Assembly: GCA_036867785.1 (NCBI GenBank)
Contig: CP145415.1
Coordinates: 930,001 to 994,000, forward strand
Direction of reading: 5' to 3'
DNA: 64,000 nt
Source of the DNA: Plasmodiophora brassicae
Taxonomy: Eukaryota
Below are positions 15,862 through 25,639 of the stretch, one piece after another. Below the pieces are notes generated by a model. It made no database searches. It was not told the origin of the DNA and was given only the letters and a program-made list of their open reading frames with translations. A program made the position numbers and the translations under genes. How positions within the stretch are numbered: the first letter of the stretch is position 1; every line of letters begins with the position of its first letter.

Positions 15862-18800
15862 ATGTCGTTGCTGCGACACGTTCGATTCGCAGGCAGGGCG
15901 TCAACTGCCGTCGTGAGGCGCCGCCTGCCGCCGGTATTGTCCTCGCGTGCCTTTCACGTACGTCCCCATTCGGCAGGTTGTTCAGTCTATTCAGTTCAGA
16001 CGTGGTAACAGGCCAGCACCCCGCTCTTCCTTTCGAAATCGTCTGGGGGTGAAGATGACGGCATCCACGTGGAGCATATCGATTCAGGAGCAGGTAATAG
16101 TATCGCAACGTTCCTATGCCATGCTGGTGCTAATCGGGTACGGCGCTAGACGCCCTGTCAAAAGCGATGCTGACAACGCCGAAGGATGTGCTTGTCCTGC
16201 CATTGCTTAAGCGGCCGGTGTTCCCTGGGATTGTCGCACCGGTTGTTGTCCCCAACGACTCGTTCGCGCCAACGCTGCAGATCATCCGAGACAACCTGCC
16301 AATGCATGTCGGCCTGTTCTTAACCAAGGACTACAACGCGGCTGGCTCCATCAACCGCATCGACCAGATCCAGAAGACGGGATTGCTGGCCCAGGTCTGG
16401 ACTGAGTAATAATTCAAGTCGTATGTTAACCTTGACATCGGCGGGACAGGTTCTCCGCGTGTTCCCTCACAAGCAGGGCATGTCTCAGGTGGTCCTGATC
16501 GGACTGCATCGCGTGAACGCCATGGCTCCGAAACAAGGCGTCTCGCCGTTCCACGTCGAAATCGAAGCCCTGAAAGACGAAACCTATCAGGCAGAACACG
16601 ACACGACTGTCAAGGTTGATGCTCCGTTCGGCTAGTGTGAAGTGGCCTTCCACTGACGCGGGGCCATACAGGCCCTGACAAACGAGATCGTCCTCGCAGT
16701 TAAAGAGCTACTCAAACTCAGGCCAATGTTCAAAGAACAGTTCACGACGATTATCGAGCAAAGCGATCTGAGCCTGCCGGGCGACCTGGCTGACTGCGTT
16801 GCCGGACTAACGAGCTCTGATGCGAAATCGGCCCAGGCCGTTCTGGAGGCGGTCTCCATTCCCGAACGTCTCAAGCTCGCTCTGGCCATGGTTCGTAAAG
16901 AGATCGAGTACAGCGAGATGCAGGTCAAGTTCAACGTTCAGGTCGATGGTGCCGTCAACAAGACGCACAGGCGTAAAGCGAATCGGCGTTTCCAGCATTG
17001 CCGGAATTGTAACGCTGTTGGCAGGAGTTGTGCTGATGGATCAGCTCAAGCAAATCAAGAAGGAGCTTGGGATGGAGAACGACGAGAAGGATGCGCTGAT
17101 TACCAAGTTCCAGAACCGATTAGCTGAGAAGGACGTCCCCGAGAATGTCCTCGCGACGGCAACTGAGGAAATGAACAAGCTGGCGAGCTTGGAGCCGTCG
17201 TCGTCGGAATTCGGGGTGACCCGCAATTACTTGGACTGGATCTCGATCTTGCCATGGGGTGTGGCATCAGAGGAGAACTTCAACTTGGACAAAGCCAAGC
17301 AAGTGCTCAACGACGACCACTTCGGCCTGGACGACGTCAAGGAGCGTATCCTGGAACTGATTGCAGTGGGCGCGCTCAAGGGCTCTGTCAACGGAAAGAT
17401 CCTGTGCCTCGTTGGCCCGCCCGGTGTTGGCAAGACGAGCATCGGCAAGTCCATCGCCCGAGCACTGGACAGGAAATTCTACAGGTTCTCCGTCGGTGGC
17501 ATGACTGACGTCGCTGAGATCAAAGGCCACCGGTATGTCGTGATTCGGCGGCATCCAGGCACAAATTGCTGATGGGCATTCGTAGTCGAACTTACGTTGG
17601 CGCAATGCCTGGTAAAGTGCTGCAGGCGCTGAAGGTCACCCAAACCTGCAATCCGGTCCTGCTGATTGACGAGATCGACAAGATGGGCCGGGGAACCAAT
17701 GGGGACCCTGGGTCTGCTCTGCTGGAGGTGCTGGACCCGGAGCAGAACAAGGTACTGCCCAATGGGTGTACGTTGCGGTATCAGTGGGTGACTGCTCTCC
17801 AGGCCTTCCTGGACCATTACCTGGATCTCCCGTTCGATGTTTCTTCTGTGCTTTTCCTGGTGACAGCCAACTCGTTGTCCACGATACCCGGCCCGTTGCT
17901 GGACCGCATGGAGGTCATCGAGCTCACCGGGTACGTCACCCAGGAGAAGATTGCCATCGCCGAGAAATACCTGGTCCCGAGAGCCATGGCCGACTGTGGA
18001 TTGACCGCTGATGAAGTCAAGCTAGAGTCCAGCGCTCTAGCCGGCCTGGTGACAAACTACTGCCGAGAGGTGCACCTGACGTGCGAATCTATTGACATGG
18101 GATTCTCATGTATCGTGTCAATAGGCTGGAGTGCGTCACCTGCAGCAGCAGATCGAAAAGATCCTCAGGAAAGTGACGCTCCAGGTCGCGAGTGGGCTCT
18201 CCAAATCAATGACCGTCACTGGCGACAACCTGGTCGATTTCGTCGGCCACCCGCTGTACACGACCGATCGTTACCATGAGCGCACGCCGCCCGGTGTGGT
18301 CATGGCCCTGGCCTGGAACAGCAACGGCGGTTCGACAATGTACATCGAGAGTATTGCTGGCCGCCAGATCCCATCGGGTGGCCAGCCAGGCGCGTTGCAG
18401 ACCACCGGCCACCTCGGAGAGGTCATGACAGAGAGCACAAACATTGCCATGTCGTTCGCGAGGTCATTCCTGACCAAGGTGGCCCCCGGCAACGATTTCT
18501 TCGACACGAGCAACGTCCACATGCATGTCCCGCACGGGGGAACACCCAAAGAGGGCCCTAGCGCGGGCTGTGCCATGGTGACCTCGTTGATCTCCTTGGC
18601 GTTGAACCAGCCGGTCCAGCACGACCTGGCGATGACAGGCGAGGTGACCCTGACGGGAAAGGTGCTGAGGATCGGCGGCGTCCGGGAAAAGACGATGGCG
18701 GCGCGACGATCCGGTGCCACACACATCGTCTTCCCAGCGGAAAACTTTGCCGACTTCCAGGACCTGCCCGAGTACATTCGCGAGGGCGTGACCGCCCACT

Positions 18801-18889
18801 TCGTGTCGGACTATAGCGAGATCTTTGCTATTGCGTTCCCGGACCTCCAGGACAAGGAGCACGTCTCCGACGTCGTCGCCGCCGTCTGA
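15862..18889 (+). CDS. LONP1: Mitochondrial Lon protease, multi-exon
   Basis: Arg-rich presequence [14 protein letters not shown]; Lon-[12 protein letters not shown]; Walker [27 protein letters not shown]; catalytic Ser in PKEGPSAG and Lys in IGGVREK. Confidence 0.96.
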
Positions 18890-19064
18890 AACGGTACGAC
18901 CTGAACATAACCCGACACTACTGATACAGTATTATTGCTGTGTTCTTCGTGCAACCGGACGGCCAGTGGGTAGACGGCGGCTGCCCATCGTACAGCTGCA
19001 TGGAACGGACGTGGTCGGGGTGTAGGTACTCGCGTCACAGACCCGTGCCGCGAACTGTGGTGAA

Positions 19065-21567
19065 ATGCGGGTGTCGACGCTGACGCGGCTGCCCGGTCAC
19101 CTGCTTGCAATCAGGGTGATCGCGGCGATGCCGGTAACGTCGCCCCACGTGGATCCCACATACGCTGAGCGCCTCATGGCGCTCGTCGACCCAACCGTGC
19201 CCTTCGATCCGACCTCGGATGCGTACTGGGAGGTAACCCGCGATCACGAAACGCACCGCCCCGTATAGTGGACAAGCTCACGTTGCCGTTCTGGCAGCGC
19301 ATCGCGTTTCTAGCGATACCAGGGGCGGCTCTCCTGGCCGGGTTCCTGTTATCGGGTGCGATTTTCATCATCGCCCGTTGCTGTTGCAATTCCGTACGAA
19401 CACACATGTGCCATGACGTCTGCTATTATGTACCTAACTGCATGAGCAAGTGTGGCGGCAGGTCACCGTCTATCGAGGGGTATACAAGAAAGGCACGCGC
19501 GGCTCCGTTCCTGACCTTGCTGGCGTTCACGGCCATCGCCGTCTTCGCCTGCGTGATCGCACTCGACTCCAATCACAGGTGCGTCTATCTGCCATTCGCC
19601 CAGACGCCACCAACCCATGGTGCGCTCCTGCAGGGTTTCGACAGCGGTGGGCCGTACCGTGCAAGGAACAACGACAGCACTGGCCGACGCCCAGGACACG
19701 CTAGGCACGATTACCAACAGGCTCGATGCACTGTCAGCCGACGTGCCAGTTCGGACAGGAAACGTCCAGTCCATCCTGGCGGTCGCCTCCGTCTTACGCA
19801 CCGACCTGGCGGGGATGCTTGGTACCTATAGCAGGCTTGTGTTTGGTGTACAAGCGGCCCGTAATCGGTACTGGTGCACAAAAGGATCTCTGGATGACCT
19901 CGCGAAGACCATGCCTGAGGCCAAGGCTCAAGTTCCCAGTGGCAAGACATATTCATGCTCTTATTGCAAATCAGCCGGCCCAATCATCGCGATGGCCAGC
20001 ACAGACGTCCATCATTACGTCTCAATGACGTTCGACAGCGTCTTTGCTGGAATCGCTGCAGCCAACTCCACAGGTACGACAAAGACTCGTTGCTGCGTAT
20101 GCACACTGATCGTATCGGTAGTTGTTGCCACGAGGTCTGCAGCACTAGCTCAACTGGGCAGCGCCAGAGCACAACTCGGCAACGGAAGTAGTCGATTATC
20201 AGCAGCCAGGGATATCATCGTCCCAGTAGCGCCTCGCGTGGCAACTGGGGAGAACTGGCGGTACTTGGCTGTGAGTGCCGTTTGATCAGCATGCGCAGGT
20301 CATGGTTGGATGACGACTAGCAACAGTTCCAGGTGCTGTTCTGGGTTCCGGTTGCATCGCTGGCCGTAATTCTGGCTGGGGCATTGACCTGTAGCGCGAG
20401 CGCGTTCCGAGTCAACTGCTGTGCCTCTACGGTGGTTGTTATCGGAGCTCTCGTGGTATCAACTGTTTCCATCCCGGCAGCATTCTTCCTACAGGACGCC
20501 TGCCGCTCAGTGAATTCCCGAGAGCATTCCCTGCTGTCCCAGGGCAACACTAGCAACTCGAGTGCAGGTGCGTATATGGCTCCGACATCAATTGGTGCAC
20601 CTGATGCATGCTCTGCAGTCGAGGAGCTAGCGAGCGCCTGTTTTCATAACGCGTCACTGGTGGACATGTTCAACGTCACGGGTATGATGGACCTTGCGAA
20701 TGCGTCGCTGGCCGCCTTGAAGCCAATCCCTGCGACCCGTACCGAGTTGTTGCAGCTGGAGATGCTCACCAATGGTACAAGCAAACTGACCATTGCCACG
20801 TTCGGGTTCAACTCGTCGAACATTGACCAGCGCCTCGTAAGACCGTTCAGCGCGTGCCCCAGGAACGACGCGCTGATGTAGCGGCATAGTTTGCATTCAG
20901 CACGGATCCCACGCTGACGTCGAGGCCGGGAGCGGTGATGTACAACCGATCCACACTAGCCAGTGCACCTGTCGATGCAGCATCGGCTGGGGCAGCCGGT
21001 CTCCCGGCACGTATCGCGGCAAAGGCGAACCTCATGAGTCAAATCGACGATGAGCACCTGGTCACCTTGGCTCTGTCAGCAGTCAAGGTCTGCAATGTGC
21101 ATGCGAGGAGGGAGCGGAATCAGATGATACGCTCTACTTAGGCGAACGTGTCTCGTGTCGCGTTGGAGGTCAGACGCTTTCGGTCCAACATTACCGCGAT
21201 TCAGCAGTTGCTCAAGACAATTCCCCATGAGATCGCCCTGCTGTTCGACAGTGTCAACGCGTTGCGCGATGTGGCGTTCTGTGGATCACTGCCCAGCCAG
21301 TACCTGGACGTGAAATCCTCGGTCTGCACTATCATCATGCCCAACACTGCCCTGTTAAGGTACGAAACGTCGGTCGTCGCCTTGTCCAGCACCCTGATTC
21401 GACGCCGTACATGCAGCCTATGTGCAATCACCGTCGCCCTCGCCGCAATCGCCACCACGGTAACATCCGCAATCCTGTCGAAACGCTGGGGCCGACCGAA
21501 ACGAATTCTGTTCGACTTCAAGAGCGACGCGCGGATGCGATCGTGGCATCCGCCGGCGTCAGCCTGA
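19065..21567 (+). CDS. Tweety/prominin-like multi-pass membrane protein, multi-exon
   Basis: Spliced N-terminus FDPTSDAYWE/RIAFLAIPGAALLAGFLLSGAIFIIARCCC resembles Tweety TM1; about five TM segments with two long helical loops; FLQDAC and FCGSL...VCT cysteine motifs; true start may be 19128. Confidence 0.65.
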
Positions 21568-21850
21568 CGTGTTAAAACGGCGCGCCTCCGCCCAACCCAA
21601 ACTGGCCAGAGGAACCATCAGCGCAGGTTTTTGGTCGAAACGGCGCGGAACCGGCCGGGGGCGGGCGGCTGCGAGGTTCGTCGTCGTCCGCGGGCCGCGG
21701 CACGCCAGCCACGGACTGGGCCGGCGTTTACGGTTGCACAACGCCCAAAAGTGGGGGGTGTTGTGCGATCCGTTGGACCTTATACGGCGCCGCCGTCAGC
21801 GACAGCATCGTCGACGGGTCGCGGGCCGCAGCGTGACGGCCGACACCGGC

Positions 21851-22194
21851 ATGGGCCAGGACAGTTCCGCCGTTGGGTTCGTGGCGGCGTCGGGTGGCGC
21901 GCCCGTCTCGCTCCGCGATGCCGTGTCGGCGTCGCTTCAGCAGCAGATAGAGGGCGACCCGAGCGTCAAATCAGAACTGCCGTCGTCCGAGCAGTCGAGC
22001 GAGTACGTACTTTCGCGTGGCGGAACCGGACAACCCTGTGTCCTAACCGGGGCGGTAGGCAGGCGAAACGGCCCAGGTCGCATTTCGCGACGGTGATCGT
22101 GTCAGGCGCGACGATGGTCCTGTTCACAGGGGCGGCCACTGCTGCTGGCGTATACTCCTTCTTCAAATGGGCCGTGTCCCGCCGCCGACACTGA
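21851..22194 (+). CDS. Small tail-anchored membrane protein (2 exons)
   Basis: MGQDSSAVGF... spliced in frame to QAKRPRSHFATVIVSGATMVLFTGAATAAGVYSFFKWAVSRRRH*; C-terminal TM followed by a basic tail. Confidence 0.6.
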
Positions 22195-22399
22195 CCGTCC
22201 CCCCACCGGTTCCATAAATTCGACAATGATGGCCTGCTGGCCGTACACGCCAGAATGTTTCCCAAACGTGTCCCTCGGGGCCAGCGCGAACTGGTAAACC
22301 CTGGATAGGCCTGACACTGTGCGCACCCGAAACGGAAGAACGTATTTTCGACAAGTCGCTGTGGATCCTGCTCAGTCGGGATTGCGTTGGCCGCTGGGG

Positions 22400-23944
22400 A
22401 TGGTCGCCGAGGTCAGTGTCGGCTGGGCGGCGAGCGACGACGCGGTGATCGACGCTTGCACTGCGGGCGCAGACGGGCTTGTGATGCGCGTTCCAGTGCC
22501 TGATGGGGACGATCCCGTGCCGGCACTGGCCCGGGTGTACCGCGTTGTCCTGGACCGCATCGGGCCCGATTTCGACATCACGGTTGTGCCGACGACGGAA
22601 ACGATCGGAGACCACGGCGTTGCCGTTCTCGGTGGCACGTTCGACCATCTTCACGCCGGGCACAAGCTGCTGCTAGGTGCGGCCATGTGGGCCATCCGGG
22701 GCTCTGAATCACCTCGTCTGTTCGTCGGGTTGACGACCGACGCGATGCTGAAGAACAAGGCGTTTGCGGATGCGCTAGAACCGTACGACGCCCGCGTGTC
22801 GAACGTGATCACATTCTGCAAGACAGTCGACCCGCGCGTTCTGGTAACCGTCGTCCCCCTAAACGACATGTTCGGCCCGTCACTTCGCAGCGACGTCGAC
22901 GTGCTTATTGTATCAAGGGAAACGGAAAGCGGGGCAGCCGTCGTCAACGAAAAGCGTGTGCAGCTAGGTAGGTTGACGACTGCCCTTCAACACACCTATT
23001 GCTAACACGTACTGGCAATGCCGTCGCACGTGCAGGTGAGCGCTCGATCCCGGTCGTTGTCGTTGACACCATTGGGTACGTCAACGTCGAGTGGATTGGA
23101 AGTGGCCGCGACGTTCATTTCCGGATCGGGCAGAGTACATGGCTCTATGGAGAAGCTCAGCTCGACCGCGATTCGTCGCAAGATTGTTCGAAATCGCCAT
23201 TTGCAGACTCGGTGGTCGGCGCTGATGACGGTACGGTGCGACCTGCAAGAGGCGCGTACCAACCCCCCTGACATCTATTGCACAGCGACTGGGAGTATCT
23301 GAAACCATGGCGAAACCCTGGTTCGAGCGCGTATGTACTCTCTACGAGTCTGCCGGGCGGCACTACCACACGCTCGAACATATTGACGCGATGTTGCGTT
23401 CATTGGACGAGTACGCAGCGCCTGAGGAACCCAGGGTTGTTGAACTCGCCGTCTGGTTCCACGACTGCATCTACGACGTCTTTCGGTCGGACAACGAGGA
23501 ACGCAGTGCCGACCTTGCCGATCAGTTCGCGGCCGAAACCGGCATCGACCCCGGGATCGCGCAAGCTGTTCGACAGTTCATCGTGGCGACAAAGTCGCAC
23601 GACCTCCCGGGAAACGCCTCGCACGACATGAAACTGTTCCTCGACCTGGACATGGCCATCCTGGGCTCCCCGCCTGATCTCTACGTCCGATACGCCAACG
23701 CAATCTGGCTCGAATACCAACCTGCCTACTCGTAAGTCCCGACGCTGTCCCGTCTGGGTCCGGTCTGACCAGCACCCACCTGAGTCGCGAAGCCTTTATC
23801 GCTGGCCGCACCCGCCTTCTTCGCAACTGGTTAGCCAAACCGGCCCTGTACCACTCTACCGTGGTCCACGACCGTCTCGACGCCGCCGCACGAAAGAACA
23901 TCGAAAACGAGCTGGTGTCATTAAACCTGCCTCACCCATTGTGA
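22400..23944 (+). CDS. Phosphopantetheine adenylyltransferase (eukaryote/archaeal type) fused to an HD-superfamily phosphohydrolase (5 exons)
   Basis: GGTFDHLHAGHKLLL, LNDMFGPS, LIVSRET, EKLSSTAIRR, then RHYHTLEH, AVWFHDCIYD, DNEERSA, FLDLDMAILG; introns 22968-23035, 23076-23133, 23231-23285 and 23732-23772 keep a single frame; start codon tentative. Confidence 0.85.
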
Positions 23945-24048
23945 CAGGCTTGGAGAGATGAAACCGAAATCGGTCCACCTGACGTCGTCATCAGCCTGGG
24001 CCGCGTTGCGACGGGGTCCATTTCCGATTGCGAACGGCGGTGCTCCGC

Positions 24049-25440
24049 ATGGTCAGGATCGGGAACGCGGTCCGATCGGCGGCCGCGTGGCGGGGACCCG
24101 TTCGTCATCGACCATCGTCGTCGCTGATGTACGACGAGTTTGTTCGTCGCCCGTCCGTCCCGTTGGCCGTTCGTATCCTGACGCGGGACAACGACCCCGA
24201 TCGGGCGTGGGCGGTGTTCGAGCAGATTGTCGCGTCCGAGGCGGACGTGGGCGTCCCGTTCTACCAGGCCATGATGACGTTCTGTCGTCGACGGATGCCG
24301 TCCAAGGCGCCCGATGTCATGTACACGGTCGTGGAGCGGGATGTGCCGACCTGTGATGGTCTGTTCTGCATGTTTCTCGCCGCTTGCCAGTGCATGAGGC
24401 CGATCCCGGTCGACGCCGTCCTCGACGTGTACAGCAGGAGCGGGCTTCGTTCGCACAATGCCTTGTTCGGCGTGGCCCATATCTGCCGGCTGGCGTTGCG
24501 CCCAGCATCGGCCCTATTCCTCATCTTCGACGCGATCGAATACGAAGTGGTATTCTCCGACCGGTTGCTGTCGGTTCTTGCTGCCTGCTGCGCTGAATCC
24601 ACCTGTCCAGAAGGGGCGAACGCCGCCGAAGTCATCATGGACATGCTTCGAGCGAGGCAAATCGCGCCTTACTCGAACCATCCTGCCTTTGGCAACCTTG
24701 TAAAAGCCTTGCTGGCCCAAAACCGTCTTGATTCTGCTCTTGGAATCCTTTCTCTGATGGATTCCATTGGCGTCCCGCCGTCTGCTCGAACCTTCACCCA
24801 CGTCCTGCTGGCACTCGCCAAAGGTGATCGCGTCTCGGAGGCGATCAGTGTCTTCCGAACGATGCTCGATAGAAACGTCGATGTTGCTGTACCGGCGTTT
24901 GCCTCTCTTGTCGCCGCTTGTGGACGATGCTCGAAATTGTCAGATCTTCGCGTCCTGCATCAGCATTCAGAGAACAGAGCGCTCCTGCAGAATGAAATGG
25001 TAGCGAACGCGTTTGCGTCAACGTTTGCCAAAGCAGGTCTCGTCTACGAGGCGCTGGATGTATTCCAGGACATGGTTGACGATGGCCTGGAGGTGGATGC
25101 TGTTTCGATGGTCTCGCTTATTGCTGCGTGCGCTGAACGCTTCTACATGTCGAACTTGCAGACGCTGCATCAGTATGCGCGAAACAGGCGACTGATGAAG
25201 AGGAATCGAGTTGCAAGCGCCTTTGTGTCTGCATATATGCTATGTGGGGACCTCGAGGCGTCGGAGCGGGTGTTCCGAACCAAGCACAGCTGGTGTACGA
25301 AACGACATCGTACTGCTGCACAAGAACCTGCCCAGCCTGAGATCACATCGGCACGCAAGACGACTGTGGAACGCGAGAACGAATATCGACAACTCCGATC
25401 AGTTTTCGTCTGGAATGCCATCAGACGATGGACCTGGTGA
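24049..25440 (+). CDS. Pentatricopeptide-repeat (PPR) protein, probably mitochondrial
   Basis: Intronless ORF with ~35-aa helical repeats (e.g. [51 protein letters not shown]); Arg-rich N-terminus. Confidence 0.85.
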
Positions 25441-25639
25441 TAGAGGTACGTTTCGCTTAATCACTCTGGCAATCTCGCTCGAACCTGTCACAGGTCATCC
25501 TAGCATACACGCGCGCTTACTTCAAAGTGCCAAAGTACCCCAGCTTAGAGGTCGAAAGGCGCAGTTGACAGGCACGTGGGCGCACACACAGCGCAGCCAC
25601 TGTGATGGGAACATCCTGGACGTGATTGCAGTCGCCACG

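Follow-up and report, generated by a model that had tools for sequence, protein, structure and literature searches.

On the forward strand of contig CP145415.1 of Plasmodiophora brassicae, coding sequence for PPAT, an adenylyltransferase of the coenzyme A (CoA) pathway, is followed closely by coding sequence for an HD-superfamily hydrolase, which raises the questions of whether the two belong to one spliced gene and of what an HD hydrolase would do beside a PPAT. The locus lies at 22400-23944 (+) of the window, by which we mean the whole stretch of 64,000 nucleotides analyzed, with positions counted from its first letter. A first-pass annotation had joined the two open reading frames through four introns and had taken the fusion as a link between this HD family and CoA metabolism.

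To follow splicing, we considered contigs of 4 of 24 sequencing runs, which were compared with window positions 21500-25500; three of these runs, from three studies, were RNA-like and one (X15) was DNA-like. It should be noted that the runs were classed as RNA-like by guess, and that the evidence for splicing is the joints in the assembled contigs themselves. Exon 1 (22400-22967) holds the start codon, an N-terminal region of about 70 residues and the PPAT core GGTFDHLHAGH (H85 at 22652, H88 at 22661); its Met aligns with Met7 of the relative P0046, and the exon is covered by RNA-like contigs. Intron 1 (22968-23035; 68 nt, GT-AG, phase 1) separates it from the 40 nt of exon 2 (23036-23075), which encode the last PPAT strand, and intron 2 (23076-23133; 58 nt, GT-AG, phase 2) is followed by exon 3 (23134-23230), whose 97 nt encode the PPAT KLSS motif (K210 at 23153), a short linker and the first HD helix. 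Intron 3 (23231-23285; 55 nt, GT-AG) stands at the PPAT/HD junction and, given exon lengths of 568, 40 and 97 nt, is in phase 0. Exon 4 (23286-23731) then encodes the HD catalytic core, with H263 (23367), H267 (23379), H294-D295 (23460-23465), N305-E306, T337, H340, D355 (23643) and D357 (23649).

The joints of introns 1-3 all stood within a single contig in each of the three RNA-like runs, while the one DNA-like run had none of them; no base differences were listed. The shorter side of the intron-3 joint still spans 97 letters, so that the joint connects the exon carrying the PPAT end motif directly with the HD exon. The PPAT-HD fusion at 22400-23944 is real and spliced. HD begins about 6 residues past the end of PPAT, and P0046, itself a fusion, can be aligned to 431 of the 436 residues with 38% identity. 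The first-pass annotation was thus right that EKLSSTAIRR and LQTRWSALMT share one exon (23134-23230) with no stop, that the 55-nt phase 0 intron leads into RLGVSETMAKPW, that one spliced transcript crosses the junction and that the HD metal ligands (H263, H267, H294-D295, D355 and D357) are intact. Two separate genes, with HD starting from the ATG at 23307, are highly improbable: the contigs also span neighbouring genes and hence do not alone delimit a transcript, but the 23231-23285 joint connects exon 3 to exon 4 in frame, the first HD helix sits in exon 3 and the closest relative, P0046, is also fused, so this reading is refuted, barring parallel use of the second start.

The surroundings of the gene, all on the same strand, hold several further genes. 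A small separate spliced gene lies upstream (21850-22194), its intron at 22003-22058 being joined in all three RNA-like runs and its product having at its end a hydrophobic segment and then basic residues. Directly downstream is a PPR-repeat gene (24130-25440; PF13041, E 3e-15); at 25447 the RNA contigs of all three runs diverge from the window, each with the same loose end, which probably reflects a longer intron. Farther upstream, 17500-18890 holds what we take, from its translation, to be an intron-split gene for a Lon-type protease.

The fourth intron should be considered separately. It is predicted at 23732-23784 (53 nt), between a perfect GTAAGT donor at 23732 and a weak GAG acceptor at 23784, with an alternative in-frame CAG acceptor at 23772 (41 nt). 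Its joint was absent from the three RNA-like runs, all three contigs reading through it unspliced; of the four introns that had been proposed to join the reading frames, the first three are thus borne out by joints and the fourth is not. If intron 4 is retained, the TAA at 23733-23735 is in frame and the protein stops at 384 aa, before residues that are invariant in relatives. As judged from conservation, exon 5 (23785-23944), which encodes the C-terminal HD helices and ends in TGA at 23942-23944, is real coding sequence: it scored 27.8-31.8 bits against HD profiles, where the best of 500 shuffles reached 4.4, it also matched positions 155-202 of the HD-family profile phrog_19425, and it carries R392 (23807), N422 (23897) and E426, which are kept in 74/74, 74/74 and 67/74 full-length fusions, respectively. 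The 53-nt model gives the EY-8aa-F spacing found in P0046 (the family mode is 7) and the best score against P0046 (274 vs. 271 bits). The 436-aa full form needs this weak fourth splice, while the 384-aa form, the one present in the contigs, would keep PPAT and probably lose the hydrolase. As contigs drop rare variants, a minor form with intron 4 spliced may exist. A further GT-AG intron (23941-23994, 54 nt), joined in one of the three RNA-like runs, would either remove the full-length stop and add about 45 residues, or belong to the 5' leader of the PPR gene. A metagenome search found no contig from P. brassicae or a close relative.

It may be, although we consider it rather unlikely, that in P. 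brassicae the hydrolase is mostly off or decaying, with intron 4 usually kept and the product being a PPAT with a truncated HD tail. This would agree with the retention of intron 4 in RNA-like contigs from three studies and with its GAG acceptor, where the five spliced introns have CAG or TAG. Exon 5, however, retains R392, N422 and E426 in an open frame, and the contigs keep a single path and overlap neighbouring transcripts. Such a switch-off is compatible with the functional readings given below and does not exclude any of them.

In the PPAT half, exon 1 matches the archaeal/eukaryote-type family (NF001985, E 9e-27; PF01467 was also matched). Exon 1 alone reached 94 of 104 bits against NF001985, and 97.2 when reading through intron 1; the fused relatives P0046 (115) and P0009 (106) exceed the cut-off of this family. 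The PPAT motifs (GxFD-x-x-HxGH, K, R, ET and KxSS-T) are in place, with all 25 columns that are conserved in at least 70% of the 74 full-length fusions matched; K210, S213 and R217 are found in 72, 73 and 73 of the 74. In the genome assembly (25.3 Mb in 20 contigs; introns at our locus are 54-68 nt), we found at least one strong PPAT locus, the fusion, which was the sole strong candidate found, and at least one HD of the phrog_19425 family, again the sole copy found. PanK, a DFP domain, a PPCDC-type flavoprotein domain and CoaE are encoded elsewhere (counts being lower bounds), DPCK (CoaE) as a separate gene on contig C1. As genes for PanK, PPCS, a PPCDC-type enzyme and DPCK are present, the parasite does not depend on host phosphopantetheine, and the salvage of host CoA precursors, suggested earlier as a role for the fusion, is not needed. 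Membership in COASY (PPAT-DPCK) was considered and rejected, DPCK not being in the chain; a search with the COASY-type N-terminal domain gave 2.0 bits, a score reached by 14 of 300 shuffles.

For the HD half, 74 fusions and 33 stand-alone HDs were aligned, and the core motifs RxYHxxxH, HD, NExxS, TxxH and DxD are all matched. The His preceding the first metal His, which in PDEs is the general acid, is kept in 73 of the 74 fusions. The phrog_19425 family, which we take to be COG4339, a 'predicted metal-dependent HD superfamily phosphohydrolase', matches exon 4 at E 1e-20; the window HD differs from it in being fused and in having its C-terminal exon behind a weak splice site. JGI automatic names give a COG4339-type title to relatives, sometimes as a double name with PPAT, and the annotated protein of the window gene was absent from the relatives returned by our searches. 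Known families hardly reach this domain: the Pfam match to HD was very weak (E 0.099), a PDB sequence search returned no solved relative below E 0.001, the protein P0002 had no PF00233 match at E<=1, and PF00233 was not among the best 25 of 31 families matched by 103 HD members, 0 of the 103 standing among the PF00233 matches listed. Homology to AcpH (PF04336) was also rejected, with a profile similarity of 0.1% probability against E. coli AcpH alone; AcpH is also present in 2 of 5 HD-bearing genomes. In HD trees (FastTree, 263 rows, leaving out rows with fewer than 165 aligned residues; IQ-TREE in quick mode, 59 rows), the window protein pairs with P0046 with a support of 90-91, while the backbones are poorly resolved and neither support nor contradict a single eukaryotic origin.

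How far the fusion extends beyond this organism was considered with a fusion profile, searched against 1.84 billion representatives. Both domains were present in 106 of the 150 matches listed, 74 of them full-length. A long insert was seen in 21 relatives and in 20 of these it is DPCK, giving PPAT-DPCK-HD. Although names were available for few relatives, the fusion could be placed in ciliates, Vitrella, a foraminifer, zygnematophytes and diplonemids: PPAT-HD in Vitrella, Blepharisma and Nonionella, and PPAT-DPCK-HD in Mesotaenium, Spirogloea, Rhynchopus and Diplonema. An Atlas cluster with 232 eukaryotic members matches at 0.97. Judged by these sequence matches, the window gene belongs to an architecture that is broadly distributed among eukaryotes. 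Being shared with Rhizaria and alveolates and, with the kinase between, with algae and diplonemids, the fusion is not peculiar to P. brassicae. The earlier suggestion of an independent eukaryote-type fusion thus stands in that the PPAT class is separate from the bacterial one (NF001985 vs. TIGR01510), but not as an event specific to P. brassicae; likewise, of the possibility that the architecture is both widespread and already characterised, the first part is correct, whereas no characterisation was found.

Bacterial CoaD-HD fusions, which the first-pass annotation had mentioned, do exist (L121, L123 and L185), and HD stands before or after CoaD in L121, L156, L123 and L185. HD is also fused to bacterial-type CoaD-CoaE (P0279, P0283, P0288) and to CoaE with no PPAT in the chain (P0013, P0014, P0246, P0260), and precedes an archaeal-type PPAT in P0161. 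The 291 proteins collected comprise PPAT-HD (90), PPAT-DPCK-HD (24), CoaE-HD (6), CoaD-CoaE-HD (3), HD-PPAT (1), HD without PPAT or DPCK partners (157) and PPAT alone (10); this should be considered when referring to these numbers, as the set is biased, one query being the fusion profile. Queries with HD alone avoid this bias, and their neighbourhoods were read by six-frame scan. With these, 6 of 29 viral loci, or 4 of 26 clusters formed at 60% identity, had coaD or coaD-coaE adjoining HD, as did 3 of 26 metagenome loci; among genome loci the count was 0 of 80, many of these being near-repeats from Mesorhizobium and Flavobacteriaceae. Among the Pseudomonadota, HD was found in 29 of 301 sampled, with a CoaD-HD fusion as a second coaD copy in 1 of the 29, proximity to coaE in 0 of 29 and no CoA link in 28 of 29.

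In the opposite direction, CoaD was the query: of 45 viral loci, 11 had HD no more than 4 kb away, or 4 of 28 when counted as clusters with seed rows left out. HD was not found near coaD in the other 34 or in 3 of 3 cultured-phage flanks, nor was coaD or coaE found near HD in any of the 7 HD loci of cultured phages. Direct adjacency of HD and CoaD was seen in phage contigs 50-170 kb in length. Ten viral records with CoaD had a type III PanK in 0 of 10 and a DFP domain in 1 of 10, that one without HD, although the missing PanK is weak evidence, as viral records are mostly 15-51% complete. HD has other fusion partners too. From gene arrangements, the link of HD to the last two CoA steps is therefore recurrent and not obligatory. 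The repeated fusion or adjacency of HD, in either order, to DPCK and to two classes of PPAT supports the earlier claim that the fusion ties this HD family to CoA metabolism, and does so much more strongly than the first-pass annotation could.

Several loci were recorded in their own right. In viral contigs, modules of HD with CoaD(-CoaE) occur in five arrangements (L138-L143, L156, L157, L173, L185, L186), and the neighbourhoods in L139 and L140 also encode a CCA-adding-type enzyme and a PRTase. L110:2872-4020, immediately downstream of coaD, encodes HD fused to a YjgF/RidA-like domain, which belongs to a metabolite-damage family. In Caulobacter phage BL47 (L209), coaD lies about 4 kb from a nicotinamide phosphoribosyltransferase gene and HD is not present.

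The fold of HD was considered on models of two relatives, the stand-alone P0182 and the fusion P0009, and not of the window protein itself. The P0182 model (pLDDT 96.8, from 103 sequences) was compared with 48,161 chains, and ranks 1-16 were all class I cyclic-nucleotide PDEs, the best with Z 16.5 and an rmsd of 3.7 over 217 of 221 residues. The unassigned HD protein 2pq7 followed with Z 14.2 over 168 residues, and YpgQ and YedJ with Z 10-11; YqeK (COG1713; 8wmy), tried as the nearest structure, was rejected at rank 49, with Z 6.5 over 140 aligned residues vs. 16.5 for the PDEs. The P0009 model gave the same result (Z 14.7), Foldseek agrees weakly (E 2e-3), and profile-profile comparison with three PDEs of this genome put YH-xxx-H and HD in register, at probabilities of 4% and 22%. 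The packing of the two domains could not be settled with a model from 4 sequences (pTM 0.46). According to these models, HD resembles a class I PDE in fold, yet is outside PF00233, and the shared fold alone does not fix its substrate. Compared with the class I PDEs (PF00233; PDE9A, PDE5, PDE4), whose modelled likeness lies in the fold and the aligned YH-xxx-H and HD motifs, HD has about 210 residues instead of 300-330, shares 13-16% identity and shows no GAF or other regulatory domains. The P. brassicae genome itself holds at least 8-9 loci for class I PDEs, on C5, C14, C12, C20, C6, C7, C8 and C1, with 22 matches at the level of exons.

Taking partners and predicted fold together, we tentatively propose, at somewhat less than an even chance, that HD frees 4'-phosphopantetheine from a diester-blocked form for use by PPAT. 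The fused gene would then encode one bifunctional enzyme. Its N-terminal half, according to its family and intact motifs, would convert ATP and 4'-phosphopantetheine to dephospho-CoA and PPi, and its C-terminal half would be a two-metal phosphodiesterase of reduced class I PDE fold. This half would regenerate 4'-phosphopantetheine and might hand it to the PPAT site by channelling. HD, PPAT and DPCK, in this order, would form a repair loop that is independent of PanK and CoaBC. As the partners are always the two enzymes acting after 4'-phosphopantetheine, a hydrolase yielding this compound would explain the pairing, and the class I PDE-like fold favours a diester-opening route over a YqeK-type route. 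Against the proposal stand the lack of a CoA link in most cellular HD copies, the viral and phage coaD loci without HD, the other fusion partners, the high Z of 2pq7, the weak Foldseek and profile-profile values and the retention of intron 4 in the three contigs. The same modelled fold is a poor fit to the removal of PPi by HD, another of the earlier suggestions. Pantetheine 2',4'-cyclic phosphate, which arises when CoA or dephospho-CoA breaks down, is a six-membered cyclic diester like cAMP, and may be the substrate, with the chances clearly against it but not small. The phosphopantetheinyl-serine of carrier proteins, or of their peptides, is an improbable candidate. The product of the acyl-carrier-protein phosphodiesterase AcpH is 4'-phosphopantetheine as well, but AcpH differs in that no profile similarity to HD was found. 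Our literature search found no paper on pantetheine 2',4'-cyclic phosphate forming from CoA, and the accessible part of PMC9405834 has no cyclic species.

Among the other functions considered, proofreading survives best, although it is still unlikely. Here, PPAT would occasionally take CTP, UTP, GTP or dATP, or cap RNA, and HD, as a YqeK-like diphosphatase, would cut the wrong-nucleotide dephospho-CoA analogues to 4'-phosphopantetheine and NMP. The gene logic has an exact precedent in the NadD-YqeK fusion, where YqeK hydrolyses NaCD and NaUD, according to the accessible part of PMC9426524, and a promiscuity of PPAT toward pppA-RNA is reported in the part of PMC10761072 available. The idea suits every PPAT-linked arrangement, but not the CoaE-HD chains that have no PPAT (P0013, P0014, P0246, P0260), and the modelled HD fold is not YqeK-like, as the Z values above indicate. 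Both systems place an HxGH adenylyltransferase of a cofactor pathway with an HD hydrolase, fused or clustered, under a logic of repair; NadD-YqeK belongs to the NAD pathway and another HD family, whereas PPAT-HD belongs to CoA, has a predicted PDE-like fold and is widespread in eukaryotes and phages.

A general nucleotide phosphodiesterase, acting on 3',5'- or 2',3'-cNMP or on ApnA, with the CoA fusions reflecting co-regulation or drift, seems quite unlikely. Its closest modelled folds are indeed cAMP/cGMP PDEs, most bacterial copies are stand-alone in unrelated neighbourhoods and in phages HD is found close to genes for RNR, dCMP deaminase or tRNAs. Nonetheless, drift would hardly yield at least five arrangements, in either order, with DPCK and two classes of PPAT, nor the direct adjacency to coaD in phage contigs, and several true class I PDEs are already in the genome. 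Slightly less probable again is an action at the adenosine end, where damage to CoA would give 2',3'-cyclic CoA and iso-CoA, and where HD would open the former, correct the latter or remove 3',5'-ADP. This would suit the predicted phosphodiesterase fold and the HD domains fused to DPCK alone or placed after it; PPAT, however, is the commoner partner, and DPCK is outside the chain in P. brassicae, ciliates and Vitrella.

Returning to the release of 4'-phosphopantetheine, a wider version of this proposal can be drawn, which should be regarded as speculative and unlikely as a whole. HD would be a minimal class I PDE relative, extending from prokaryotes to eukaryotes, that opens cyclic phosphopantetheine for rebuilding by PPAT and DPCK; an HD-bearing CoA synthase would be ancestral in eukaryotes and trimmed in animals, plants and fungi; HD, CoaD and CoaE of large phages would form a CoA-reconstitution module like the phage NAD-rebuilding pathways, hinting at CoA-cleaving host defences; and the weak splice site may toggle the repair domain in P. 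brassicae.

With respect to published work, a search of the main texts of mainly open-access papers gave no description of PPAT-HD, of CoaD-HD, or of COG4339 and its function. The accessible parts of PMC13700151 and PMC7824862 do not treat the COG4339-like HD family, and that of PMC8721197 describes a different fusion, HAD-DPCK. What is new here is the RNA-level splicing of a eukaryotic fusion with its retained last intron, the three-domain CoA synthases, the unbiased counts in viral contigs, the match of the predicted fold to class I PDEs and a named candidate substrate. COASY is similar in having the eukaryote/archaea-type PPAT, and 20 of the 21 long relatives are PPAT-DPCK with HD added; the window protein differs in having HD and no DPCK, and to our knowledge animal COASY has no HD.

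For a large enzyme family that is uncharacterised so far, the finding provides a short, testable list of substrates, and it suggests a missing repair step in a universal cofactor pathway. With three-domain forms in two distant supergroups, it alters the picture of eukaryotic CoA synthases, and, if the models are correct, HD would offer a compact relative of the class I PDEs. HD is also a domain found in protist PPATs that, as far as we know, is absent from the human and plant enzymes.
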